A stretch of 62,662 nucleotides of DNA, counting the filler, from Stramenopiles sp. TOSAG23-2 (Eukaryota): the NCBI GenBank assembly GCA_900128395.1. It is 11 parts of 11 records of this genome, joined end to end, with 100 filler letters (N's around TTAATTAATTAA, not from the genome) between each part and the next. Parts side by side here need not be neighbours in the genome. Positions count along the whole stretch, not along the records: positions 46,569 to 53,102 come from LT650450.1; 10 more parts are not named here. One strand, 5' to 3'. Position numbers and translations under genes: made by a program. Numbering within the stretch: the stretch's first letter is position 1; every line of letters begins with the position of its first letter. The notes below the pieces were generated by a model, which ran no database searches, had not been told where the DNA came from, and worked only from the letters and a program-made list of their open reading frames with translations. This document shows, one piece after another, positions 7 to 61,193 of the stretch.

Positions 7-1010
7 TTGGACAATGGCAATTTTGATATAGATTCAAAATATTATGCAACCTATACATTATTAAATAAGAAATATCAAACTGAAGATACGAAACCTACGT
101 TTGATCCAGATGAATTGACAAAACCATTATTAGCATTTGAGAGTACACGAAAGTATTGGGCAAAAGGTAGTGTACATGCTATGAAGCATTATTTCAATAC
201 ATTAGCAAAGCCAATGGAAATTAACATTTATAAAAGACGTACAAATCCATTTTTATCGATTTTAGATCGATTAAACCATGCATTTGATGAAATTGATTTT
301 GAATTGCATGGTTCCGTAGTATTAAAAGAACTCGGGTATGGCATAATTTTCAATCCACGAACAATTGAAGCATTATTAACGACAGATCAAGCGTCTGCTA
401 GGAGACAATATATTGATGAATCTGCTTTGAAAAACAAATTGAAAAGTATAAGTGTTTTAAATCAAGGTCGTAGTAGTGGTACTGGTCGATTTAAAAATTT
501 AAAAGCAGCTGGTTCAGGGAATAAATCACCTAGCCCACGTAAACGAGGTGGCCCATCATCATCCCCAAATAAAAAAAATCGTAATAGTAGAAGTAATAGT
601 AATGTTACTGATGATATTAGTGAGAAATATAATGAAATGAATGAGGAGGAGGATGATGATACTGAAATATTGTATCGTTGGCCAAGGAATGAGTTTTGTG
701 ATTTAGATACATACGTAGAAGGTACAATTGTTATTGGAGAGTTAATGCTTCGTAAATTTCAAGAGGAGGAAAATAAAATTGGAAATAGTGTATTACATGA
801 AGCAATTTCAAGAGATGAATGGGTACAATCCATGTGTCAAACAGTACAATTGCGTTATATTTACGAAGCTGCTATTCATTATCGTGGTGGAATCAAAAAT
901 GTTACGGGTGTACAAAAGCTAAAAGCAGCACGTTTAACAACATCGTTCTCTTCATTGTTACCTACATCGGATAGTGCTATGAATAATAATAATCATAATA
1001 ATAAGGCAAC

Positions 1011-40496: not shown

Positions 40497-41546
40497 ATGA
40501 AAAAGAATAATTTAAAATTATATATATTTGTGATAATATCATATTGTTATGTTATCAATGCGGAGATAGGTTGTCAAGACGAGGATGGTTCAAGTGTTGA
40601 TTGGTGGGCAGCTATTAAATATCCAGATGGAACAACTTATGCATATGCAGATGCAAATTCGGATTCATTTAAACTGTCTTCGAATGACATGAAATACAAA
40701 ACAACAGGTGCGTTATCTGAAACATTGCAACAAGTATACAAAGGATCTTCAAAAACGGTCGGTTATGCTATGTATAATGATGAATCCCCAAACGGCGATA
40801 AGTTTGGTACGGCATGGGGACATTTTAAAGGTGTGGTAGCTACAGATAAAAGTAATGGTTTTTGGCTGATCCATTCCGCACCAAGGTTTCCTGAAACAGT
40901 CGCAAATGGTTACGATGGTTATCCTGATTTTGCTTCGAAATATGGACAAAGTTTCTTATGCACATCACTTGATGCTGATACGATCAATACTGTCGGTATA
41001 CAAATGCAAATGGCACGTGGACATATATACGATGCGAACGTACCATCGTTTGTAAATGATACTATGCCAGATTTTGCTGATGCTATTGGGGGAAAACATG
41101 TAACATCTGGTGATTTTACAAGTGTGAAAACAATTACAACGCGTGGTGGTACTTCTTTCACATCTTTCATGAAAGCTGGAAAATGGGATAAAGAGTTATA
41201 TGAATACCTCGTTGCTCCAACACTTGGTGCTGGTGTATATGCAGAAACATGGCAAAATGGAGTTGGTGCTACACCGTCATTTTGCAATACATCTTATTCA
41301 TATAATGCATTGAATATAAATGAACTTGTTATGCCAGATGGAACATCTTGGACAAATTCTAGAGACCATAGCAAATGGTGCTGTACAATGGACCGTGGAA
41401 TTAAAGTTGCTTGTATTGGTGGAATTAATCGCCAGCATGGACAATTTGGAAGAGGTGGCGGAACGTTGTGTTTCCAAGACAATGAGAATATGTGGGAATC
41501 CATGTATAATATGGTGAAAGAAGTAAAACCATGTGCTGATAAATAA
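40497..41546 (+). CDS. DNASE2: Deoxyribonuclease II (lysosomal, PLD superfamily)
   Basis: Signal peptide; CQDEDGSSVDWW..IKYP, MYND, GHFKGV, GFWLIHSAPRFP, YGQSFLC, DHSKW, CIGGINRQ..Q..RGGGTLC. Confidence 0.95.
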   Translation: MKKNNLKLYIFVIISYCYVINAEIGCQDEDGSSVDWWAAIKYPDGTTYAYADANSDSFKLSSNDMKYKTTGALSETLQQVYKGSSKTVGYAMYNDESPNGDKFGTAWGHFKGVVATDKSNGFWLIHSAPRFPETVANGYDGYPDFASKYGQSFLCTSLDADTINTVGIQMQMARGHIYDANVPSFVNDTMPDFADAIGGKHVTSGDFTSVKTITTRGGTSFTSFMKAGKWDKELYEYLVAPTLGAGVYAETWQNGVGATPSFCNTSYSYNALNINELVMPDGTSWTNSRDHSKWCCTMDRGIKVACIGGINRQHGQFGRGGGTLCFQDNENMWESMYNMVKEVKPCADK

Positions 41547-43261: not shown

Positions 43262-46200
43262 TCAAGCTTTTAATCCACTTGGACTTCTTCCAGCTATTTT
43301 TTTGCTCCAATAATTACTACTATATTTTTTAATCGTTGGATCGATATTTAATGCTTTAAAATGATCAGCATTGTTATACGAAGTATCAAACATACTTTTT
43401 AATGGATCTTGGTACTGTTTTGTTCTATGATTATACGTCCTTGCAGTACGAGCAAATCCAGTGTTTCCTGCTATACTAGCAGTAGCATTTAAAGTCGTTT
43501 TACCAAATTCTGGTGAAGTAACAAATGATGTTTCATAACAATCACGTTCAAATGAAAAACGTCGATTAGCAACACGCCGATGATTATTTCCACGTTTTGC
43601 TAGTAACTGTGCATATTCATATTGGGCCTCAAGGTTAGTAATACCAAACCTTTGGGCTTCTAATATATAAGTCCCATAATTATTGGCACGTGAATTACGT
43701 AAAAAAGTTGAAGACGCAGTCGTCAATGGTGCAGCTGATCTTTTATTAAAACTTTCATTGCCATTTCGATAAGATTGTTGATGATGATAATTTGCATTGC
43801 TGTTGTTGCTATTATTTGTAGAATTAAATTCATCTTCAACAATGTCACTCATCGATGCACTTGAATCTAAATTTGCCATGGATGGCGTTTCCTTCATCGG
43901 TGAGGTAAATTTAAATGGTGAAGGTATTCCATTTTGCGTATATTGATTGTTGTAATTATTATTTTTTGTTACTGAACGATTGTTATTATTATGGCTCATA
44001 TTAGCACTTTCATCTTCATTAGATAAATCAAGCATGGATGGAGTTTCCTTTAATGGTGACATTGCATGTAATGATAAATTCGATTTACTTTCCATGATCA
44101 ATGAACGTTGTCGTCGAGCCAAACGATGACCTCCTTCATTTATGATTGGTGAAAGTCCTGGAGTGTCAATGATTTTATTTTTATTATTATTGTTATTATT
44201 AAGATGATTTAATATGTATTCTGTATTGTGACGACGTTTCAATTCAATTTGTTTTTCCTTTTCTGCTGAATTATTAAAGAAATTACTACCATGAGATAAA
44301 TCTTTCATTTGTAAATCGTGATTTTTATTTGGTGTTGTTATATTTGTGTTATTTCCAGTTTGAAATCCAGTTAAATTATCGTCATTTAAATCATTACGAA
44401 ATAATAGTGTACTTTGACTTTTATTTCCACCAGGTAATGTAATTCCACCGTTGCTACTACCACTACTGTTATTCATACTAGTATTTGAATTGTTGTTATT
44501 ATTATTGTTATAATTCTGCTGCTTCATCTGTTGATGTTGTTCTTCTCCTCTTATCTTTTCCACCAATCCTTCTTCTTCTTCTTCTTCTTCCTCATCAACA
44601 TCTTCAAAAACTAATGATCGTGATATTTTCCTATCATTGATCAAACTATTATCGCGACTTCCACTATTAGTATCATTTGAATTGAAAGACATTTCACCAC
44701 GAGAATCACTTTCATTACTACTTAAAATTGGTGATAACCCTGGAGTAGGCACGGTTAAATTACGTTTTTTCATACTACTAGTAGAGCGATATTTATTATT
44801 TGCCAGATTATTGTTATTATTTCTTGTCGGTGTTGAATGTAATATATCACTTAAGGTCTTCTTTTTATTATTGTTACTGTCGTTGTAATTGCTATTATTA
44901 GCGGGTGAATGTCCTGTTCCATCATCATCCATGCCACCAATAGTCACAGTATTATTGCTATTTGTGCTACCTACGTCAGATGCAACTAATTCTAATCCAT
45001 TCAATGATATTCTTCTATTACTAACTGTGCTACTAGCATCATCTGATCCAAACGAAGCATTCATTTTTTGAAAATGATCTCCTACCAGTTCATCATCTTC
45101 ACCACCAAAGGATGGTCGTGTACCGATAGATAATCTATGTTTCGATTCAATCGAATCAGTCGATGGTCGACCACCACCAATACTAATTCTCCTCTCCTCT
45201 TGTATATGACTATTATCAACATCATCATTATTTTGTTGAATTGGTGAAATAATATTATTATTTTCCCTATCATTTCCGATTATATTATTCACCGATTTTG
45301 ATGCTATATTATTATTATGATGAAGATTTGTTCTCCTTCCTCCTCCTTCCACTTCTAAACGTTGTTGTTTTTGAACATGTTCATATAATGTTGCCATTGT
45401 TGGAGCATCATCGTCTCCTAAAAAATCATTATTTGTCAAACCATTGTCTTGTTCTCCACGTTGTATAGTTGGCGATGATTTTTTCTCATAATTTCGTACT
45501 CGAAGTGGTGTTTTTAATTTATCAATAGCCGAACCAGAATCTAATATAGTTGGTTTGCCTATACTTGGACGATTACGCATGACATCTTCAATGCTATCTT
45601 GTCTCAGCAACCCTTTCTCACCATCTTTATCATCCGTTGAAAAATCTTTTAATCCATGTAAATGAGCTAATGTATCAATACTGAAATTTAAATTTTGAAA
45701 GGACTCTTCATTTTGTGTAGGGTCAACAAATAACTCGTCATCTTCATCTTCCTCCTCTTCTTCTTCACCATTCTCATTCACTTTCTTTGCATCCATATTT
45801 TCAAATGCTTGATCAAAATCAGGAAAATGATCTTTATCTTTTGCAATAAAAGGATGTTGAAATTCAAGCAATTTCATTTGATCGTTTCGATCATTTAATT
45901 TTAATTCAAGTTCTTGTATTCTATTACGTTGTTCCTTTAATACGTTTATATTATTTTTTAAAACATGGGAATTTTTTGTANNNNNNNNNNNNNNNNNNNN
46001 NNNNNNNNNNNNNNNNNNNNNNNNNNNNNNNNNNNNNNNNNNNNNNNNNNNNNNNNNNNNNNNNNNNNNNNNNNNNNNNNNNNNNNNNNNNNNNNNNNNN
46101 NNNNNNNNNNNNNNNNNNNNNNNNNNNNNNNNNNNNNNNNNAATTTGATACGTTTCGTTTTCATCATCATCCATCATAATATTATATTGCATTGTATTAT

Positions 46201-46324
46201 TATTATTTATAAAAGTAGCAGTAGCATTTTTCGTTATTTTGTTGTTGTTTTCTTCCCCTTTTTCTATATGTTTTATTGGTGGTGGATGGGATGGTGGTGG
46301 TGGTGGTGGTTGTCCATTTTTCAT
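43262..46324 (-). CDS. Long low-complexity Asn/Ser-rich protein with a coiled coil; spans the N gap 45981-46141
   Basis: Uninterrupted frame; repeated TPGLSPI and SP(L/M)KETPSM motifs; no recognised family. Confidence 0.7.
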   Translation of the reverse strand: MKNGQPPPPPPSHPPPIKHIEKGEENNNKITKNATATFINNNNTMQYNIMMDDDENETYQIXXXXXXXXXXXXXXXXXXXXXXXXXXXXXXXXXXXXXXXXXXXXXXXXXXXXXXTKNSHVLKNNINVLKEQRNRIQELELKLNDRNDQMKLLEFQHPFIAKDKDHFPDFDQAFENMDAKKVNENGEEEEEEDEDDELFVDPTQNEESFQNLNFSIDTLAHLHGLKDFSTDDKDGEKGLLRQDSIEDVMRNRPSIGKPTILDSGSAIDKLKTPLRVRNYEKKSSPTIQRGEQDNGLTNNDFLGDDDAPTMATLYEHVQKQQRLEVEGGGRRTNLHHNNNIASKSVNNIIGNDRENNNIISPIQQNNDDVDNSHIQEERRISIGGGRPSTDSIESKHRLSIGTRPSFGGEDDELVGDHFQKMNASFGSDDASSTVSNRRISLNGLELVASDVGSTNSNNTVTIGGMDDDGTGHSPANNSNYNDSNNNKKKTLSDILHSTPTRNNNNNLANNKYRSTSSMKKRNLTVPTPGLSPILSSNESDSRGEMSFNSNDTNSGSRDNSLINDRKISRSLVFEDVDEEEEEEEEGLVEKIRGEEQHQQMKQQNYNNNNNNNSNTSMNNSSGSSNGGITLPGGNKSQSTLLFRNDLNDDNLTGFQTGNNTNITTPNKNHDLQMKDLSHGSNFFNNSAEKEKQIELKRRHNTEYILNHLNNNNNNKNKIIDTPGLSPIINEGGHRLARRQRSLIMESKSNLSLHAMSPLKETPSMLDLSNEDESANMSHNNNNRSVTKNNNYNNQYTQNGIPSPFKFTSPMKETPSMANLDSSASMSDIVEDEFNSTNNSNNSNANYHHQQSYRNGNESFNKRSAAPLTTASSTFLRNSRANNYGTYILEAQRFGITNLEAQYEYAQLLAKRGNNHRRVANRRFSFERDCYETSFVTSPEFGKTTLNATASIAGNTGFARTARTYNHRTKQYQDPLKSMFDTSYNNADHFKALNIDPTIKKYSSNYWSKKIAGRSPSGLKA

Positions 46325-46568
46325 CGTATCTTTTCTGTAATTTTTTTGAAGAAACCTCTAATTATTTCTTTATTAAATATAGAAATGAAAATTGTATGAG
46401 TTATTAAAAAGAGATATTATATGTCTTTTGTAGATCTAATTTGTTTTATTTCTATTTTGTTTGAATTANNNNNNNNNNNNNNNNNNNNNNNNNNNNNNNN
46501 NNNNNNNNNNNNTTAATTAATTAANNNNNNNNNNNNNNNNNNNNNNNNNNNNNNNNNNNNNNNNNNNN

Positions 46569-46877
46569 CTGTTCGTCGACCGTTACAGTCTTCTCTACAG
46601 TAACACTAGATGTATTCGATGGTTGTGTAGTGTTTAAATATTTCTGAGTAAATCTATAACGAAACCGCCTAAAACCAGGCCCAGCAGGAGTTAAAAGACC
46701 ATCTGTAAGTAACGCATTTATGGCATTCCTTATATATGTAGTTTTAGCACCTTTACTCCTACCGTAGTGCGTTAAATCATTTTGTAATAAATAAGCGCGG
46801 ATTTCTCCCTCTGATGATCCTTCAGGATTTGCCAATGCTCTTATGGCAGTTACCACACGTTGTTTATATGTTGGCAT
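46569..46877 (-). CDS. Protein with an N-terminal linker-histone (H15)-like winged-helix domain, 3'-truncated
   Basis: PTYKQRVVTAIRALANPEGSSEGEIRAYL...IRNAINALLTDGLL resembles the H1/H5 globular domain. Confidence 0.6.
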
Positions 46878-47910
46878 CTTTCTGTTTGTTACTTTTTACT
46901 ACATGTATAAAACAATTGAAATTCTTTTCTCTCTTTTTGTTCTTTGATATCTTCATTTCATATTTTACTTTTTTACTTCATACAAAAAAATAAATAAAAA
47001 CACGTTGTTTATATGTTGGCATCTTTCTGTTTGTTACTTTTTACTACATGTATAAAACAATTGAAATTCTTTTCTCTCTTTTTGTTCTTTGATATCTTCA
47101 TTTCATATTTTACTTTTTTACTTCATACAAAAAAATAAATAAAAAAAAAAAATATTATTTCAACATCAATTGCACCATTTATTCAATCCACAAAATCTAA
47201 TAATACCTTAACCTGTATTATACTAATAATAATTACATTCTAATTCTTCAATCTAAAATCTAAATCTAAATCATCAAATTAAAATATCAAATCTTCTTCT
47301 TTGTATTCTACCTGGTACTTATTGCAACCTATTTATCAACAACATCCAGCATAGTCGTAGCATTAAGAAACAGGACATGGACATAGCATTACGAATCTAG
47401 CATTTTAGAATTTTCAGCTGTAAAAGAAATTATTTCAGCATACTCGGTCCCTTCACACTACAATGGTGTCTCCTCGATACTGTCTGCTTCACTCCTTTTT
47501 GTATAATTTCAGCACAAGATCTTTTTATTTCCATTCAATATTTTAATCTATCGTGTTCAATATTCTAGAAGAATAGCATCGACATACCATTGTAAATCGA
47601 TGATATTTGATCTCAACAACAACTATTTATATATGTAGATATATATATATATTGTTTCATACAAACAAACGAAGAGTAGAAGAATAGCATCGACATACCA
47701 TTGTAAATCGATGATATTTGATCTCAACAACAACTATTTATATATGTAGATATATATATATATTGTTTCATACAAACAAACGAAGAGTAGTAGCAAGAAA
47801 AGAAACAAATATAAATTGATTTTGTTTAATAAAGTATATATATATATAGAAAGAAACACAACATAAACGAATATAGATATATATAAAGAATTTAACAAGA
47901 AAAAACAACA

Positions 47911-50466
47911 ATGACAAAACAATGGATGAAAATATTTGCATGTATTGCAATTGTAATATTTGCAAATAATGTTGTACGTGCAGCACCAACTGGATTAGCT
48001 GCTGCTGTGGACAGTTACTTGAAACCAGCTGCAGATGCTGCTGAAGAAAAAATAAAAGATTGTACTGGGCAAGGTTCATTGGATAGTACAGGTGAATGTT
48101 CAAAAGTATTGAAAACTATCTTACGTGATGGTGCTATTGATAGTTTGAATCAACAATTATCGTTACGTAATATAAAAGGTTTAGCAAAAGGAGATTTACT
48201 GGAATATGCAAAACAGTTTCAAAAAGGTTTAGGTTTATCCAACGCTGAATTTATAAATTTTAAAGCTGGTTTGAAAGAATCGATTACAGGAAATTCGCCA
48301 GTTTTCCTACGAACAATGAAATGCAACAAGGCTGGAAAATGTAAATATTTGTTGTTTGCTACTGGTCCATATACGAAATCAAAATTGGAAATCCTTACAT
48401 TAAAATCAACTATGGCATTTTCAGTTGCGCCTGATATTGTTGTTGTACAACAAACTGTTACTGATCCGGAAAGTGGTTTACCAGCTGGAAATAAAATTGT
48501 CATGAAAGAAGTACCAAAAACAAAAGAAAATGGAGTGGATGATGTTATGGTTTATTTTGATAAATATGTTTACCAAGAAATGAAAAAAGCATTTCATAAT
48601 GATGGTGGTAATGGTGGTTACGATGGTCCAAAGCCACCAACCCAGGTAAATCCATTTGCAAATTTATTTGACGAAAATGATAGTGATGATGTTACCTATC
48701 GTAGTATCGGAGAAGATGATTTTGGATTCGCTTTTGACTCTAGCAATGGAAAAGTGCAAGGTATACAACGTTATTCCCCAAATAAACAGCGTGAACAAGC
48801 ATTGATCGATGCATGTTATAGTGCTGGTTTAAGAGGTTCAGAGGCACGTCAATTCATGGCACAATGTTCCCATGAATGTGATAATTTCAATACGATGGAA
48901 GAATACGCGTCTGGTGCTGCCTATGAAGGACGTAGTGACTTAGGAAATACACAACCTGGCGATGGAAGACGTTACAAAGGTCGTGGCTACATCCAATTGA
49001 CTGGGAGAGCAAATTATATCGATGTTGGGCGTGCCATTGGTGAAAATTTAGTGGATAATCCAGACAGGGCAAAAGAGCCAAGAGTTGCAGCGAAGGTAGC
49101 ATTGCATTTTTGGAAAACACGTGTAAGAAGACGTGTTAGTAATTTCTGTGATACATATGCTGTTACCCGTGTAATTAATGGTGGAACCAATGGATTGTCT
49201 GATCGTAAATCTAAATTTGCAAAATATGGTGGATGCGATGGTAGTAGTGGTGGTGGTGACCCAGACCATAAATGTACTGCAGCTCGTGGTAAATGTGCAG
49301 ATTCAAACGCATACGATTGCTCTACTGGTTTTAGATCATCTCTTTGCTCTGGTAGTTATAGCAATAAATGTTGTACTGGTACCATTTCAAAGAAAGGTAG
49401 TAGTGGTGGCGGATCATCACCTGGTGGTGGTTCTTCTTCTACTACTTGTTCAAGTTGTTTAAAAGGTGGTGGTGGCAAAGGATGTGCAAGTCGATGCCCG
49501 AGTAACTATGCATGCCAAAATTGTGTCAAATTTGGTGGTGGCGCAGGATGTTTAATTAATTCCAAATGTGGCACTTGTGCAGGGACTTGTTTTAATAAAT
49601 ATTCAGGAAGTTGTAGTGGTTCCGTAGAAACTAGTAAATGCCCAGGCAGCTCTAGTATTGTTTGTTGTGCATCAGGGAAATTAAACTCTGGATCCATGTA
49701 TGACAGTCATCATAGTAGTGATAGTTTCACAGATGTAGGATCCAAAGTGGTAGATTTAGGTCATAAAATTACAAATCTGGATGATGCTGACGATGACTTT
49801 CATAATCGCTTTAAAGCAATTGTAAATCGTGCATTTAATAGTTGTGTAAGAAAATGCTTTGTTCTTCTTCATGATGCTCAAGCTTGTAAATCTCAATGTG
49901 AAATGGATGGGCAAGAAGTAATAGAGGAAAGTAAAGATATTGCACAACAAGTAGTAAGTCATATGATGGATAATGACGATACACAACCCGCAGGAGCAAG
50001 TGATGATACATTTGGTACTTATGCAGATGTTGGGCATGAAGTAGATACTTATGCAGATGTTGGACATGAAGTAGATAATGAAGCAGGATCCCGAAATTTA
50101 CGTGAAGCATTGAATCCATCATCTGGTAACTGGAAATATGATCTTGGTGATGGTTCTAGCATCAGGAATATGCTTGTGAATCATCAAGTGTTTGATGAAC
50201 AAAAGACGCGCGAGCTTCGTAGTAGTTGGAAAGAAAATATCAAGAAAAACTTTGTATATTTGTCATTTCCATTTTCACGAGCAGGTAAATGTTCAAAAAT
50301 AAGGTATGAAGCTGCTTTAAAGACCCGAGCAGGATGTTGCCCTACTCGATTATCACAAAAATGTCAAAAAGCAATATTTAATAAATGTTGTGCTAAATGC
50401 AATTCTGGATCATGTTTCCGAATATGTGCTTTAGAAGGATCAAGTGATATCGAAAGAAATTGCTGA
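47911..50466 (+). CDS. Secreted modular protein with a glycoside hydrolase family 19 (lysozyme/chitinase) domain and Cys-rich modules
   Basis: Signal peptide; FMAQCSHEC...MEEY...YEGRSDLGNTQPGDGRRYKGRGYIQLTGRANY...ALHFWK...VTRVINGGTNGLSDRKSKF. Confidence 0.92.
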   Translation: MTKQWMKIFACIAIVIFANNVVRAAPTGLAAAVDSYLKPAADAAEEKIKDCTGQGSLDSTGECSKVLKTILRDGAIDSLNQQLSLRNIKGLAKGDLLEYAKQFQKGLGLSNAEFINFKAGLKESITGNSPVFLRTMKCNKAGKCKYLLFATGPYTKSKLEILTLKSTMAFSVAPDIVVVQQTVTDPESGLPAGNKIVMKEVPKTKENGVDDVMVYFDKYVYQEMKKAFHNDGGNGGYDGPKPPTQVNPFANLFDENDSDDVTYRSIGEDDFGFAFDSSNGKVQGIQRYSPNKQREQALIDACYSAGLRGSEARQFMAQCSHECDNFNTMEEYASGAAYEGRSDLGNTQPGDGRRYKGRGYIQLTGRANYIDVGRAIGENLVDNPDRAKEPRVAAKVALHFWKTRVRRRVSNFCDTYAVTRVINGGTNGLSDRKSKFAKYGGCDGSSGGGDPDHKCTAARGKCADSNAYDCSTGFRSSLCSGSYSNKCCTGTISKKGSSGGGSSPGGGSSSTTCSSCLKGGGGKGCASRCPSNYACQNCVKFGGGAGCLINSKCGTCAGTCFNKYSGSCSGSVETSKCPGSSSIVCCASGKLNSGSMYDSHHSSDSFTDVGSKVVDLGHKITNLDDADDDFHNRFKAIVNRAFNSCVRKCFVLLHDAQACKSQCEMDGQEVIEESKDIAQQVVSHMMDNDDTQPAGASDDTFGTYADVGHEVDTYADVGHEVDNEAGSRNLREALNPSSGNWKYDLGDGSSIRNMLVNHQVFDEQKTRELRSSWKENIKKNFVYLSFPFSRAGKCSKIRYEAALKTRAGCCPTRLSQKCQKAIFNKCCAKCNSGSCFRICALEGSSDIERNC

Positions 50467-50825
50467 GATAAGATTTTACGAGAGCGCGTTTATCGAGATA
50501 ATATCATAAAAGAATTATAATCTAAGAGAGATAGAAAAAAATAAATGTATATACATATACACACTTTTATTAATATATATGTGTATCTCTAATATTTGAG
50601 AGTAAATTACTTCGTATATATATATATATATATATTTTCTTACCACAAGATATACGAACTTCGTAGAAATTATACGCCACATGATGTACACGCACGTTTA
50701 CTCTTGTGAAGTAATGGCAAACAAATACTTTAAACGGGGAAACCATTTAAAAATATTGAATTATTTTTTTTTAACATATCATATTTTACACACTTTTTAC
50801 ATCAAATAACGATACTATCACCGAT

Positions 50826-51071
50826 TTACTCTTTCGGCCTTGATATTGGTATAGGCTCGTAATCTGATATATCCATTTTTCGCATTGTACGTTCGTATTC
50901 TTCTTCTATATTATATTCTGTTTCAGTTTGTGATTTAATTACACGGTCCCATCTATCATATTTACCACCTTGAAAAGTTGCAATTCCAAAAGTACTTCCA
51001 ACGACAAAAAACAACATGGGCACACCCGCTATAGCAGGATTTTGTTTGACTTTCCGTTTGAATGCTTGAAG

Positions 51072-51074
<3 letters not shown>
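50826..51074 (-). CDS. COX16: Cytochrome c oxidase assembly factor COX16
   Basis: GVPMLFFVVGSTFGIATF...Y TM segment; NIEEEYE...DYEPIPISRP C-terminus. Confidence 0.8.
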
Positions 51075-51105
<31 letters not shown>

Positions 51106-51575
51106 CAGTTGATTATTATTTATAACAATATGAGAAGAAGTTTATTCCTTTTCTTGTTTACGTATATACTATAACTCATATTTATATTTTTTTATAATTT
51201 GTGTTGTTTTTTTTTTATTTTTTCTTCGTACATGTACAAATAAAGCACCACACCAACCGTGCAAAAAATGTACAAAATAACAAAATAACAAAATAAAACT
51301 ATTCACTATGGGAAATAGGTATATATCGTTTTCTAAAATGCCAATTTTATTTTTCATATATTTGTAAAAAATAGCAAATATCCGAAAATATATAAAAAAT
51401 GATGAATAGTTCCCCCATGGTGAATAGTGTTAAGTGTACATTTTCTGGCAGCAAATTACAAATATTATGCAACCCGATTTTCCACTACAATATCAAATGA
51501 TCAAGATCAATATTAATTTGTACTTGAATGGGAAATTAGAATATCAGAAAAAATAATAATAATATAGCAACAATA

Positions 51576-51700
51576 CCTGGCCTTAGGCTGGTACCGTCTT
51601 CATCTGATGATGTGCCCTTCGCTTCGCTCAGTTTTTGTACTTGTACATAAACTGAGCGTGGCCGTAGAAGGTACGCCCTATCATGGGTTTAGTCCTGGCC
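51576..51700. ncRNA. Candidate structured RNA / GC-rich island (unidentified)
   Basis: Hairpin CGCTCAGTTT-TTGTAC-TT-GTACAT-AAACTGAGCG with possible outer stems; bounded by two CCTGGCC; no family recognised. Confidence 0.3.
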
Positions 51701-51939
51701 GTATAATGATGTGCAACATGTGAACTACTACTATTATTTCGAATTTTGAATAATATGAAAATTTAAATTTAATAAAAGTTTCAGGTAAGATATAGATAGT
51801 TGATGAAACACGATTGTATACTGTATATAATAATTCAGACGTGGAATCATATTTCATATTTTTGTATTATTGTTATAGTTAGTTTGTTTGTATAAATTTG
51901 TGTTTTTATTTTTTGGTATCCAGTTGATTGATTGTAATC

Positions 51940-52971
51940 ATGTCATCTTCATCATCATCTTCATCAACAAATCAAACAAGAAATTTAGTGACCTCAACAA
52001 CAACGACGACAACAACAACGACGACTTTAGTAAACACTAGTCAGAATACTGGTGGAAATACAATATCAACACCTGAACATTTCATATGCTCAATTTCTGG
52101 TGATGTTTTTAAAGATCCTGTCATTGCTTCTGATGGACAAACATATGAAAGAAACGACATAGCAAAATGGATAAGACAAAAAGGAACAAATGCTACCTCT
52201 CCATTGACAGGAATAAAGCTAAAAACTAAAGTATTAACCCCAAATCATAGTATGAAAAGTCAAATTGCAGCTTGGCAACAAAAAAATAAAAATGGTAAAC
52301 ATTTGGAAAAGGCTTTGAAAAATTTGGCTGGAGAATTAATAACTGCCTTGTCAAGTGAAGAATTAATCATCGTAATCAAAAAGATATCTAATCTTGTTGA
52401 ATCAAGTGACAAAGTATTAGTGACTATGAAAAAGCTTGAAAAATGGACAAATGCCATAGACGATGAACTTCTAACTGATGAAGTTATATCTTCTTTTGAT
52501 GTTTTAAAATCTCAAGTATTAGTAATAACACAAAGAAAGGAAATCGAATTGAAACAGCTTTCTGATATAAATAAGTGTCAATCACTTATGATGGAGAAAA
52601 AAAAAGAAGAAAGTATGCAGATAGATATTGAGCATAAAAAGGTATATGATAAATATGAAAAGTCTAAAGTAGCATTTGAAAAAGCAAGAGAGAAGATGAA
52701 TAATGATGAGTTGGAATTAAAACGTGTTAAAAAAGCAAAAGATACCAATGCAAAACAAATTGAAATCTTGGCAGATTTAATTAAAGATTCCATTTCAGAA
52801 ATGAATAATAATAATATTGTCTGTGATAATAATAGTAGTAATAATAGCAATGGAAAAAGAAATTTATCAAACATTAATGGATCATCATCAAGAAAAACCA
52901 AACGACGTAAAACGAATAGTAATACTTTCAATGATGAAGTTGATTTGTCACTTGGTGCTCGTATGTGTTAA
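51940..52971 (+). CDS. U-box E3 ligase-like protein with a coiled coil; true C-terminus probably continues via the duplicated segment 52970-53102
   Basis: PEHFICSISGDVFKDPVIASDGQTYERNDIAKWI...SPLTG..L...LTPNHSMKSQI. Confidence 0.88.
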   Translation: MSSSSSSSSTNQTRNLVTSTTTTTTTTTTLVNTSQNTGGNTISTPEHFICSISGDVFKDPVIASDGQTYERNDIAKWIRQKGTNATSPLTGIKLKTKVLTPNHSMKSQIAAWQQKNKNGKHLEKALKNLAGELITALSSEELIIVIKKISNLVESSDKVLVTMKKLEKWTNAIDDELLTDEVISSFDVLKSQVLVITQRKEIELKQLSDINKCQSLMMEKKKEESMQIDIEHKKVYDKYEKSKVAFEKAREKMNNDELELKRVKKAKDTNAKQIEILADLIKDSISEMNNNNIVCDNNSSNNSNGKRNLSNINGSSSRKTKRRKTNSNTFNDEVDLSLGARMC

Positions 52972-53398
52972 AAGAAATTTATCAAACATTAATGGATCAT
53001 CAAGAAAAACCAAACGACGTAAAACGAATAGTAATACTTTCAATGATGAAGTTGATTTGTCACTTGGTGCTCGTAAATTATTTGAAGATGGATTAAACCA
53101 TGNNNNNNNNNNNNNNNNNNNNNNNNNNNNNNNNNNNNNNNNNNNNTTAATTAATTAANNNNNNNNNNNNNNNNNNNNNNNNNNNNNNNNNNNNNNNNNN
53201 NNATTAGGGTTAAAAGTTTATTTTACTGCTATTCGCATACTAATACACAATATTGTATAGAAATAATTTATTTTCGTTTTAGGCGACACTTTTAGCGGAC
53301 TTGGCTCTAATATTATTATTTATTAATATTATTACTGTCGATTATTACGTGTGTAAACAACGTAAACAAAATTAAATGTACGTGTCTGATATCTCTTT

Positions 53399-59488: not shown

Positions 59489-59824
59489 TCCCAAGCCCAG
59501 GCAAGCCCATAAGGCAAGCAGGCAAGCAAAAAAATAATAATAAATTAGATTAGAGTTCTTGGTATTATAGATGGCAAATTTAAATATTTTAATTTGTTTT
59601 TTTTCAAATATTATTTTTCCAAGCCCCTTTAGTGAATTTAGTATACAAATACTATTACAAACACAATTTTAAAGGGTTTTTTTTTAAACTAAATATTAAA
59701 ATACCTTAATATATATATATACTGNNNNNNNNNNNNNNNNNNNNNNNNNNNNNNNNNNNNNNNNNNNNTTAATTAATTAANNNNNNNNNNNNNNNNNNNN
59801 NNNNNNNNNNNNNNNNNNNNNNNN

Positions 59825-61193
59825 ATGTAATGACTTGACCACTTATACCACTAATTTTAAAATTTCCGTTATTTTCTGGACTCGCAGTACAACCTGATAT
59901 AGTTACTATGTCATTTACTGATAAAAAATTAGACGGCAACATAGTAACGTCTATTGTTAGTGTTCCCGTTGTTGTTATGCTATCAATGATCAGCATGTCA
60001 ATGGGAACATCAACAACATTTGTCAAAACATTTCCATCACGACTATCAATTAACATCACAGTACCAGATGTTATTGCTTGCGTATCCATTTGAGTTCCTA
60101 CATTATCGGTTGATTCTAGAAATTCAATTTGTATTGGATTTCCAGCTTTATCCGATGTACTTTTTACACGTAATAGTTTACCATCGGTCATATCGTTATT
60201 ATCTATGATATCTATTATTTTACCTGATGTCAAAAGCGCTGCTTGTAAATTTGTTACAGTGCCATCCTTCAATGCCGAAGCATCTACATCAATAATGGTA
60301 CCAGACATTGCTGCGGTAACATTGATATTGATTATTTTACCACCCCCGCCGGCTCCGTCAGCGGCAGTAAGGCTACTAGATGTACTTAGCAAGTCAACCA
60401 TATTTCCCGATCTTAATAGATTTCCACTTACACGTACGATTCGTCCTGATGTTACTTTATTAGCTGTAATATCAAATACAGCACCAGTACCGATAGCAGT
60501 TGCTTCTGTTTCCAAATGCATAAGTCGACCACTTGTCAATAAAGTACCACCAGTCAATTTCAATAAATTGCCTGTTCTCATATCAGTAGCACTTATTTCA
60601 GCAATACTACCAGCCGTCTCATCATCTCCTTGTAACAACAATAAATGTCCTGTGTTTGATAAAGTATGATCAATACCACCACCTTCTAAAGGATGGGTCG
60701 TTCCATCCCCAGATATGATATGCAATGCTTTCCCAGTTGTTAAATCTCTTGTTTTTATTTTAATACCAGTTCCTCCTTGCATTTCTTCTGCTGTAATACG
60801 TATTGCACCAGCTGCATCATCTAAAGTAGTACTTGTTTTTATATCAAGCAATGCACCACTTGTCAAATTAGTAAGGGATTGTATTCGAATCGCACGACCA
60901 TCACTTAAAGCACTGGCATCAATATCTAATAATGTACCAGATGTTTGTGATGTACCTTTTAGCGTCAATAATGATCCACCTGTGCCGTATCCTCCTGAAC
61001 CATCATTTAATAATGCATTTCCATCAAGACTATCAATTACCATACCATGTCCAGTTGTCAATGCTGGTACATTCATTTTTATACCTGTACTTACATTCAT
61101 ACTATTGTATTCGATAAATATTGGTTTTGCGTTCGCTACTGTAGCTGATATTGTTTTTATATGAAGTAAATGTCCTGTAGTAAGATCTTCATT
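59825..61193 (-). CDS. Internal fragment of a large repetitive beta-helix/solenoid protein
   Basis: Frame open across the contig; recurring ~13-aa units (LTTGxxLxI, LTSGALLDI, LTSGKIIDI) with GGG loops. Confidence 0.75.

Follow-up and report, generated by a model that had tools for sequence, protein, structure and literature searches.

Bacterivorous and other planktonic protists consume a large share of ocean bacteria. To our knowledge, the enzymes with which planktonic protists lyse bacteria are mostly known by family labels alone. Antibacterial genes have passed from bacteria to eukaryotes, such as those for GH25 muramidases and tae/dae amidases, which are also cell-wall hydrolases in a eukaryote but belong to other enzyme families than the protein described here. 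Artilysins, fusions of endolysins with peptides, were engineered to reach the peptidoglycan of Gram-negative bacteria; the present protein would be a natural counterpart, with modules whose membrane activity is only putative.

In Trichomonas, GH19 enzymes gained by lateral transfer were reported in 2025 to act on peptidoglycan but not on chitin (PMC12612818). Our protein resembles these metamonad muramidases in being a secreted protist protein whose GH19 domain clusters with bacterial sequences, in keeping both catalytic glutamates, in having accessory domains that are reshuffled among relatives, and in its use against bacterial peptidoglycan, which for the present protein is only proposed (PMC12612818). 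It differs in lacking the SH3b and LysM domains that the Trichomonas enzymes carry, in having instead parts that match no known family (N-domain, Cys-rich modules, acidic spacers), and in its host, a free-living marine plankter here and an anaerobic symbiont for the metamonads (PMC12612818). The same domain type, at 35-55% identity and with the same catalytic and substrate-binding residues, occurs in phage GH19 endolysins (SPN1S, 4ok7; mycobacteriophage lysin A; S-CREM2). However, the three-helix peptidoglycan-binding insert of the SPN1S endolysin (residues about 60-105) is missing from the present GH19 domain, which also differs from phage endolysins by 3-4 extra cysteines, a putative signal peptide and its location in a eukaryotic nuclear gene. 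In MAST-4, which are uncultured marine stramenopile flagellates, GH19 was found among the most highly expressed glycoside hydrolases, and GH19 was taken there as a chitinase family with possible lysozyme action (PMC8237690). Those genes, like ours, come from a marine planktonic eukaryote and are abundant in ocean metatranscriptomes, but the domain type, origin and architecture of their GH19 are not described in that report (PMC8237690). The acquisition of a bacterial-type lytic GH19 by a protist, proposed in the initial annotation of this locus, is thus a less novel idea than was assumed there, as lateral acquisition of GH19 muramidases by protists was published in 2025 (PMC12612818). Since the principle is already published, the gain lies in breadth and new modules and not in a new concept; the present architecture is new.

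The gene was found in a window of 62,662 nt composed of 11 joined parts, along which all positions are counted, and lies inside the LT650450.1 part (46,569 to 53,102). It is a single open reading frame on the + strand (47911..50466; 851 aa plus stop), which reads the same with translation tables 11 and 1. In the order given in Table 1, the protein comprises a signal-peptide-like start, the N-domain, acidic spacers, the GH19 domain and Cys-rich modules, in line with the initial annotation, which had also noted two further Cys-rich regions (four Cys at aa 645-663 and the C-terminal ten) and the YADVGHEVD duplication. The N-terminus, MTKQWMK followed by IFACIAIVIFANNVV and RA-AP, looks signal-peptide-like on direct reading of the sequence. 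The pattern match for the second six-Cys module covers aa 553-586, and its start at 556 was set by direct reading.

Table 1. Positions in the window of the gene, its approximate transcribed span and the parts of the encoded protein.
Feature	Residues (aa)	Position	Strand	Remarks
Coding sequence		47911..50466	+	851 aa plus stop, intronless; RNA contigs without any joint
Transcribed span, approximate		47806..50549	+	RNA contigs of 4/4 runs, no joints; ends not fixed exactly by contigs
Signal-peptide-like N-terminus	1-23	47911..47979	+	Basic start, 14-residue hydrophobic core, VRA-AP; direct reading
N-domain	24-245	47980..48645	+	New domain family, predicted alpha/beta
Acidic spacer	246-282	48646..48756	+	D/E 9 vs K/R 2
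GH19 catalytic domain, endolysin type	283-441	48757..49233	+	Predicted acid E322, base E331, water-holding T364
Six-Cys module 1	455-488	49273..49374	+	C-x6-C-x7-C-x8-C-x7-CC; not in P0003/P0004
Doubled four-Cys unit CxxC-x8-C-x3/5-C	513-553	49447..49569	+	Also in P0003, P0004, P0006, P0007
Six-Cys module 2	556-586	49576..49668	+	C-x3-C-x7-C-x8-C-x7-CC; similar in P0003, P0004, P0005, P0007, P0008, P0009
Acidic spacer	591-628	49681..49794	+	D/E 8 vs K/R 2
Four-Cys region DDADDDFH..CVRKC..C..C..	624-686	49780..49968	+	Seemingly helical, from low-confidence model alone
Tandem TYADVGHEVD x2	703-722	50017..50076	+	Inside acidic spacer
Conserved tail motif LREALNPSSGNWKYD	730-744	50098..50142	+	Common to P0003, P0004, P0049
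C-terminal ten-Cys region	794-851	50290..50463	+	Net charge +8 across aa 791-851

In all four marine metatranscriptome runs examined, which come from four studies, RNA contigs spanned the whole gene, were confined to it and were unspliced; two of the four runs were poly(A)- or oligo-dT-selected, and such contigs do not strictly prove transcription. No contig cover was found in these runs at 47000-47754 and 50624-51076, on the flanks of the gene. The contigs break at the TYADVGHEVD tandem repeat, which is present in three copies in a 98%-identical variant (P0002). The stretch was present in 20 of the 24 rows listed (12 studies), and 17 of these 20 are RNA rows. The third-position GC content (GC3) of the gene is 0.19, and 0.23 for its GH19 part, compared with 0.16-0.27 for seven of nine neighbour ORFs and 0.42-0.44 for the other two. 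The neighbour genes encode DNase II, GST, U-box, RINGv, linker histone, LSM14 and eIF3h proteins. Thus, the GC3 shared with its neighbours, the eukaryotic housekeeping genes on its flanks and the RNA contigs confined to it show that this is a genuine and apparently expressed eukaryotic gene.

A metagenome scan found two related loci only: L159, and L158, where the same locus (96% identical) lies beside the same upstream gene on an independent contig. The dN/dS values against L159 were 0.06 for the GH19 domain, 0.17 for the N-domain and 0.19 for the Cys modules, and the gene is thus under purifying selection. The window contains gaps, and perfect tandem duplications lie directly upstream of the gene. 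These two features, the lack of introns and the 55-61% identity of the GH19 domain to bacterial and phage proteins could indicate bacterial or phage DNA misjoined to a eukaryotic assembly, or the dead relic of a transfer. This explanation is refuted by a GC3 equal to that of the neighbours, a reading frame that runs on through eukaryote-only modules, whole-gene RNA contigs from four studies with poly(A)/oligo-dT selection in two runs, the independent contig bearing the same upstream neighbour, and dN/dS values of 0.06-0.19; contamination was ruled out on the same grounds. Among the neighbours, no cluster of lytic genes was seen around the GH19 gene, and the DNase II gene, 6.4 kb upstream, is the only one of digestive type; neither paralogues of the GH19 gene nor tRNA genes were found within the window. 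The term "system", used for this locus in the initial annotation, is therefore an overstatement for a single gene.

The GH19 domain was detected by Pfam (PF00182) at aa 310-410 with 45 bits for a cut-off of 25.5, and no other Pfam family was found in the 851-aa protein at E ≤ 1. The GH19 motifs SHEC..NTMEEY, YEGRSDLGNTQPGDG and GRGYIQLTG are all present. Among its solved relatives, phage lytic enzymes take the first eight places (E 6.8e-20 to 3.8e-12), whereas plant chitinases follow only from E 2.1e-9. Four of the eight PHROG families matched are labelled "endolysin" (best 1.6e-39), and 1722 phage records were matched, the best being the virion endolysin of Synechococcus phage S-CREM2 (54.8% identity). 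The best named bacterial matches belong to Lysobacteraceae (58-61% identity). Relatives made up 356 of 415 candidate stretches in a viral contig collection, the best at 56-59% identity; a giant-virus or other viral source was rejected, these sequences being no closer than those of bacteria.

The residues expected at the active site are conserved. The pair of GH19 catalytic glutamates, nine residues apart, and the water-holding threonine correspond to E322, E331 and T364 (E49, E58 and T130 in SPN1S numbering, GH19 using Ser/Thr as water holder), which are invariant in 62/62 rows. Together with G352, G357 and R358, they occur in 7/7 eukaryote-like and 55/55 other rows, and H321, Y338, R341, N423 and R432 occur in 7/7 and 47-54/55, respectively; relatives among P0002-P0058 were called "eukaryote-like" on account of their signal peptides, the Cys motifs they have in common and their place in the tree. 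The endolysin pattern of the GH19 Engineering Database consists of I33, R109, G118 and L/Y173 (PMC8547705). Two of these four positions are matched exactly, by R341 for R109, an equivalence based on the YEGR motif since the MAFFT placement is ambiguous around the SPN1S insert, and by G352 for G118; conservative replacements stand at the remaining positions (L307 at I33, V409 at L/Y173). A loop-3 disulfide (C97, C105 in rye chitinase numbering) is found in 91-93% of GH19 chitinases (PMC8547705). On reading the sequence without alignment to a chitinase, no Cys lies between E331 and G352, that is, between the catalytic base and the glycine, and this disulfide is thus missing. Pfam detected neither a chitin-binding module nor the peptidoglycan-binding domains LysM, SH3b and PG_binding_1. 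The GH19 domain has 3-4 extra cysteines that are present in 0/55 bacterial/phage rows.

An enzyme that digests food or particles containing chitin (diatom fibres, the walls of fungi or chytrids, debris of crustaceans) instead of bacteria would agree with the Pfam name of the hit, "Chitinase class I", with the chitinase label of one of the eight PHROG families, with only two of four endolysin-pattern positions being exact, and with the interpretation as chitinases of the highly expressed GH19 genes of marine heterotrophic flagellates (PMC8237690). We consider this quite improbable, given the scores of solved endolysins (1e-20 to 1e-12) against those of chitinases (1e-9 or worse), the missing disulfide and chitin-binding module, a relative (P0009) that carries VanY, a peptidoglycan peptidase, and the lack of chitinase activity of the laterally acquired protist GH19s that were tested (PMC12612818). 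Judged by search scores and motifs, because the trees contain no chitinase-subfamily sequences, the GH19 domain belongs with the endolysins and not with the chitinases, and its predicted active-site residues are intact. The assignment to a phage/bacterial type in the initial annotation is therefore upheld, with solved relatives, PHROG and trees in agreement.

In maximum-likelihood trees of 103 and 62 rows, built without plant, other (eukaryotic) chitinase-subfamily or metamonad sequences, the GH19 domain was nested within bacterial and phage sequences. Its clade of five rows (support 96/94) lies inside the bacterial/phage radiation, with uncultivated phage contigs and Crocinitomicaceae among its nearest neighbours. 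The P0005/P0009 pair stood apart from this clade in the best tree. Forcing the seven eukaryote-like GH19 rows together cost 4.31 log-likelihood units (p-AU 0.131), and a single origin of these rows is thus neither supported nor rejected.

The Cys modules were found at their predicted places, the six-Cys modules as listed in Table 1 and the CxxC(L/V)KxGGGxGC units at aa 513-525 and 535-547, and 21 of the 149 residues of aa 442-590 are Cys. In composition-preserving shuffles of this segment, the six-Cys pattern appeared in 677/20000 and the doubled-unit pattern in 23/20000, so that the patterns by themselves are not very improbable. However, all Cys of the shared modules are invariant in P0003/P0004 (56-62% identity), and the modules are regarded as real because of this conservation. 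The Cys motifs occurred in 9/9 eukaryote-like family members and in 0/49 other proteins compared, in support of a GH19 domain combined with modules confined to the eukaryote-like relatives. Both six-Cys modules end in CC with a spacing like that of beta-defensins and big defensins. The "defensin-like" description thus stands for the Cys spacing but not for profiles or solved sequences, as the Cys modules matched no defensin Pfam family at E ≤ 10, and PDB sequence searches returned midkine at E 0.5 or nothing, and no solved defensin. A word-based search with aa 446-590 returned P0002-P0004 only, and one with aa 600-851 among shorter proteins returned only fragments of the same gene. A CAKAIFKKMC stretch of P0007 is similar to the C-terminal ten-Cys region.

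The N-domain (~220 aa) represents a new domain family, predicted to be alpha/beta. No Pfam family was found for 10/10 members at E ≤ 10, chance rows aside, and this includes no Cyt toxin match; its profile gave nothing relevant against PDB sequences. Foldseek with the N-domain model gave 0 matches at E ≤ 0.001, and the AF2 model of aa 438-851, from a 7-row alignment, was too poor (pLDDT 42.3) for a fold reading. The ESM Atlas gave no usable match for the Cys region or the N-domain. Elsewhere in its family, the N-domain also occurs by itself, in tandem copies or joined to membrane anchors.

Judging from its sequence, the 851-aa protein is one of a small family of secreted mosaics in which this GH19 type and these Cys motifs are combined in different ways with each other and with further domains, giving at least four architectures. 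In P0009, the same GH19 type is joined to a VanY D-Ala-D-Ala carboxypeptidase domain (8e-18). The four-Cys region precedes the GH19 domain in P0003, P0004 and L159 and is also found in P0049, which has no GH19; the scaffold of N-domain, four-Cys region and ALNP..G.W.YD tail also exists without it. A polybasic stretch lies ahead of the tail motif in P0003, P0004 and P0049. NCBIfam gave no family for P0001, P0006 and P0007.

From these results, we think it probable that the gene encodes an enzyme which a marine planktonic eukaryote secretes to lyse bacteria, modular in build and centred on an endolysin-type GH19 core of bacterial/phage origin; hydrolysis of bacterial peptidoglycan is its most likely function. 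The substrate, the roles of the accessory modules and the site of action we infer as follows. The GH19 core would have come from bacteria or their phages, in a transfer old enough for a full match to the codon use of the host. It would have gained extra cysteines after transfer, and would have been inserted into a pre-existing eukaryotic scaffold of N-domain, four-Cys region and ALNP..G.W.YD tail, with cationic Cys-rich modules and acidic spacers between them added beside it. The domain would most likely act as a muramidase that cuts the glycan strands of peptidoglycan, with E322 as predicted proton donor, E331 as base and T364 as water holder. The putative role of the accessory modules is to bring the enzyme to its substrate, by wall binding or by disturbing the outer membrane, and bacteria would probably be killed or digested, in a food vacuole or outside the cell.

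Alternatively, the enzyme may be bacteriolytic but released from the cell, as a weapon or for the control of attached or symbiotic bacteria, and not used for digestion in a food vacuole. The protein has a putative signal peptide and neither a membrane anchor nor an obvious retention signal, its cationic Cys-rich modules are similar in make-up to secreted antimicrobial peptides, and the Trichomonas GH19s act on surrounding bacteria (PMC12612818). The lysosomal-type DNase II gene upstream lends weak support to a digestive role, and we regard exclusively external action as unlikely. A more elaborate and doubtful version of the bacteriolytic enzyme is an all-in-one weapon against Gram-negative bacteria, in which the outer membrane would be opened by an N-domain resembling cytolysins (Cyt/volvatoxin fold) together with cationic disulfide-rich peptides, giving the muramidase access to the peptidoglycan. 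The acidic spacers would shield the positive charges until food-vacuole proteases release the single active pieces from the chain. If this were true, the N-domain family would extend the membrane-active cytolysin-like proteins by a new branch in eukaryotes. The polyprotein processing and the phagosomal action suggested in the initial annotation are likewise putative.

In the favoured interpretation of a secreted bacteriolytic enzyme, the GH19 domain was, after transfer, probably adapted to the secretory pathway by additional cysteines and then shuffled into at least four architectures. Its companions are two kinds of module and a domain of 220 residues, all outside any described family, whose wall binding or membrane activity could be assayed inexpensively. 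An abundant, widely expressed marine transcript of the "GH19 chitinase" type would be a phage-type lysozyme domain adopted by a eukaryote, and this transcript would then count towards the turnover of bacterial walls instead of that of chitin.

The stretch 47911-50466 (+) encoded every feature proposed for it by the initial annotation, each at the expected place (table below). These included a signal-peptide-like start, read directly from the sequence as a basic, then hydrophobic N-terminus ending VRA/AP, the GH19 domain, and the two six-Cys modules around a doubled unit. Besides GH19, no Pfam family matched the 851-aa protein at E ≤ 1. Acidic spacers set apart the four-Cys and ten-Cys regions. 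The TYADVGHEVD repeat varied in number, with two copies in the window gene and in L158, an independent metagenome contig, and three in P0002, a 98%-identical variant; RNA contigs from all four runs broke at this repeat.

Features of the secreted GH19 protein, with GH19 residues aligned to the SPN1S endolysin (published endolysin numbering)
Feature	Residues (aa)	Window positions	Remarks
ORF (+)		47911-50466	single ORF, 851 codons and stop
N-domain	24-245		about 220 residues, after the signal-peptide-like start
Acidic spacer			between N-domain and GH19
GH19 domain	310-410		Pfam PF00182, 45 bits (cut-off 25.5)
Predicted acid, with preceding His	H321, E322		SPN1S H48, E49; E49 is the proton donor
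Predicted base	E331		SPN1S E58; same nine-residue spacing
Endolysin-pattern position	G352		SPN1S G118
Predicted water-holding residue	T364		SPN1S T130
Conserved residue	N423		SPN1S N187
Conserved residue	R432		SPN1S R196
Six-Cys module 1	455-488
Doubled CxxC(L/V)KxGGGxGC unit	513-547		flanked by both six-Cys modules
Six-Cys module 2	556-586
Four-Cys region	645-663		4 Cys
TYADVGHEVD duplication	703-722	50017-50076	inside an acidic spacer
Tail motif	730-744	50098-50142	LREALNPSSGNWKYD
C-terminal Cys region	794-851		10 Cys

The GH19 domain had been described as a phage- or bacterial-type lytic domain, and database comparisons bore this out. The best eight solved relatives were phage lytic enzymes (E 6.8e-20 to 3.8e-12), among them mycobacteriophage endolysin A, PWe endolysins, and the SPN1S endolysin, with plant chitinases appearing from 2.1e-9 onward. 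Four of the eight matched PHROG families were annotated as endolysin (top 1.6e-39) and one as chitinase. In a phage collection, 1722 records matched, headed by a virion-associated endolysin of a marine Synechococcus phage (54.8%), and 67 loci were confirmed among 185,579 species genomes, the best named bacterial ones belonging to Luteimonas and other Lysobacteraceae (58-61% over query residues 33-156). The catalytic residues were kept, and E322, E331, T364, G352, G357, and R358 were invariant across a 62-row alignment; the three-helix insert of SPN1S was missing. Two of the four endolysin-specific positions of the GH19 Engineering Database were exact (R341, by the YEGR motif, and G352), and the other two showed conservative changes (L307 for I, V409 for L/Y). 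No Cys was present between E331 and G352, which leaves the domain without the disulfide pair characteristic of 91-93% of chitinases. On balance, the domain appears from search scores and motifs to be of the endolysin type; the trees described below contain no chitinase-subfamily sequences.

The gene is a eukaryotic one and, as judged from RNA contigs, expressed. Elsewhere the window codes for ordinary eukaryotic proteins, among them DNase II, GST, U-box, RINGv, linker histone, LSM14, eIF3h, SGF29, and a kinase that carries a myosin TH1 domain. The GC3 of the gene was 0.19, and 0.23 for its GH19 part alone, compared to 0.16-0.27 in seven of nine neighbouring ORFs and 0.42-0.44 in the other two, 43262-46324 (-) and 59769-61100 (-); the latter encodes a Thr/Gly/Leu-rich repeat protein without Pfam match. 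L158 carried the same gene (96% protein identity) with the same linker-histone-domain gene upstream. The stretch was present in 20 of 24 listed sequencing-run rows, from 12 studies, of which 17 were RNA rows, all marine or seawater metatranscriptomes. RNA contigs, which inform on presence and structure and not on level of expression, were mapped for four runs, each from a different study and two made from poly(A) or oligo-dT libraries. In all four they spanned about 47806-50549 and left both flanks (47000-47754, 50624-51076) uncovered; none contained a joint, so the gene is without intron.

The upstream intergenic region held two perfect tandem duplications, 46855-47144 (145 nt, twice), within which the divergent linker-histone-domain gene begins, and 47566-47787 (111 nt, twice). 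Each unit was single in L158; the duplications may be assembly artefacts or recent events. The window contained 1101 N in total (at 46469-46568 and elsewhere); two short gaps among them lay between ORF 43262-46324 and the linker-histone-domain gene, where gene models are incomplete. The DNase II gene (40497-41546, +; Pfam 4.3e-94), 6.4 kb upstream, had a signal-peptide-like start, and a lysosomal-type nuclease would be in keeping with a phagotrophic life.

The origin of the domain was analyzed with a quick ML tree of 103 rows, from which P0002, six all but identical Luteimonas loci, and every locus with <95 aligned residues had been removed, and with a careful tree (62 rows, 164 columns) obtained by adding 13 rows (12 from viral contigs, plus the SPN1S endolysin) and then taking out 54 (distant clades, long-branched or nearly duplicate rows, and SPN1S itself). 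In both trees, the window gene and the related proteins P0003, P0004, P0006, and P0007 formed one clade (96/94 in the careful tree), nested within the bacterial and phage radiation. Its weakly supported sister group (71/84) contained uncultivated phage contigs (L078 and L083 with protein P0010; L089, L092, L132), a Crocinitomicaceae genome, and a Frateuria locus; the closest viral contigs reached 56-59%. The trees identify the donor no more closely than as a bacterium or a phage. A second eukaryote-like pair, P0005/P0009 (100/97), branched one node further out. Forcing the seven eukaryote-like rows together cost 4.31 log-likelihood units (p-AU 0.131), and a single transfer is thus neither shown nor rejected. 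The complete amelioration of codon use and the dS of >1 relative to the orthologue-like metagenome locus L159 jointly argue for an old transfer. These results support the core of the earlier proposal, a horizontally acquired domain joined to eukaryotic modules, through its bacterial and phage nesting and its eukaryotic gene context.

Cys at 323, 413, and 442 were found in all five window-clade rows and in none of the 55 others, Cys 302 in four of the five, and Cys 319 in all five as well as in 6 of the 55; these Cys would fit disulfide stabilisation in the secretory pathway. Relative to L159, dN/dS was 0.06 for GH19, 0.17 for the N-domain, and 0.19 for the Cys modules, rough values as dS was saturated. 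The GH19 domain is under strong purifying selection, and the N-domain and Cys modules are constrained too.

Given the composition, the Cys patterns by themselves are not very improbable (shuffles yielded the six-Cys pattern in 677 and the doubled unit in 23 of 20,000). The modules are considered real because they are conserved: the Cys of shared modules were all invariant across relatives merely 56-62% identical overall, and at least one of the two motifs occurred in 9/9 eukaryote-like members and 0/49 other collected proteins. The six-Cys modules follow the pattern C-x(3-7)-C-x(5-7)-C-x(8-11)-C-x(6-7)-CC, reminiscent of beta-defensins; no defensin match was found for the modules among Pfam profiles or solved sequences (PDB). 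The fold prediction of aa 438-851 (pLDDT 42.3) was too low to read a fold. Net charge was +9 in the GH19 domain, +9 in the Cys region, and +8 in the C-terminal region, every intervening spacer was acidic, and P0003 and P0049 carried polybasic stretches ahead of the conserved tail motif. An arrangement of this kind would be consistent with cationic peptides kept masked until proteolysis frees them.

The N-domain had no sequence match in Pfam, NCBIfam, or PDB, and a search of 1.84 billion representatives returned nine proteins carrying it (E ≤ 1e-3). There are hints that this family may act at membranes: some relatives (P0050, P0052, and P0055 among those noted) had two to four tandem copies, one had a C-terminal membrane anchor, and in two the copies were separated by a hydrophobic, glycine-rich stretch that gave a faint C19orf12-like match (E 0.07-0.08). 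In an AlphaFold2 model (10-row alignment; pLDDT 77.5, pTM 0.76), a first set of helices is followed by one strand, further helices, five long strands in antiparallel arrangement, and finally a long C-terminal helix. Foldseek gave no match at E ≤ 0.001; its sixth-ranked match (probability 0.23) was Evf, which has a cytolysin fold (PMC5390079).

The relatives form a mosaic family. P0003, P0004, and L159 have the N-domain and a four-Cys region ahead of GH19, lack the first six-Cys module, and end after the ALNPSSGKWKYD tail, while P0049 has the N-domain, four-Cys region, and tail without GH19. P0006 has an N-terminal part of a different kind, followed by GH19 and the doubled unit; P0007 has a signal peptide, GH19, a six-Cys module, the doubled unit, and a Cys-rich tail; P0005 and P0008 have one or two GH19 domains with six-Cys modules. 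In P0009, GH19 is fused to a VanY domain, a peptidase of peptidoglycan (8e-18); of the indirect hints at peptidoglycan as the substrate, this is the best. In the simplest reading, the transferred domain would have been put into a pre-existing secreted scaffold and then shuffled.

The Cys-rich C-terminal 90 residues of P0007 had no Pfam match; in our own reading, their CGPNW..CC.SHD motifs resemble those of a secreted phospholipase A2. In two runs, longer RNA contigs (3513 and 1123 nt) matched solely 50105-50143, at the tail motif, and ran into unlike sequence on either side; other marine transcripts seem to share this motif almost letter for letter.

A 2021 survey of 22,461 GH19 sequences confines endolysin-type GH19 to phages and their hosts, and carbohydrate-binding modules to chitinases (PMC8547705). 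According to a 2025 report, Trichomonas and other metamonads obtained GH19 genes from bacteria; these bear signal peptides and reshuffled binding domains, and two recombinant enzymes were muramidases without chitinase activity (PMC12612818). In a 2021 study of MAST-4 flagellates, GH19 ranked among the glycoside hydrolases with the highest expression in the surface ocean; it was taken to be a chitinase family and showed positive selection at the codon level (PMC8237690). The present architecture was not found described in literature, supplementary files aside, on GH19/Dictyostelium, endolysin transfer to eukaryotes, MAST-4, or protist muramidases. Our data support a phage- or bacterial-type lytic GH19 domain that a eukaryote adopted and fused with eukaryotic modules. 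This principle is already published for protists, and the present case is thus a variant of a known phenomenon; what is new is the marine free-living host and the architecture, and also the 220-residue domain family and the two types of Cys module.
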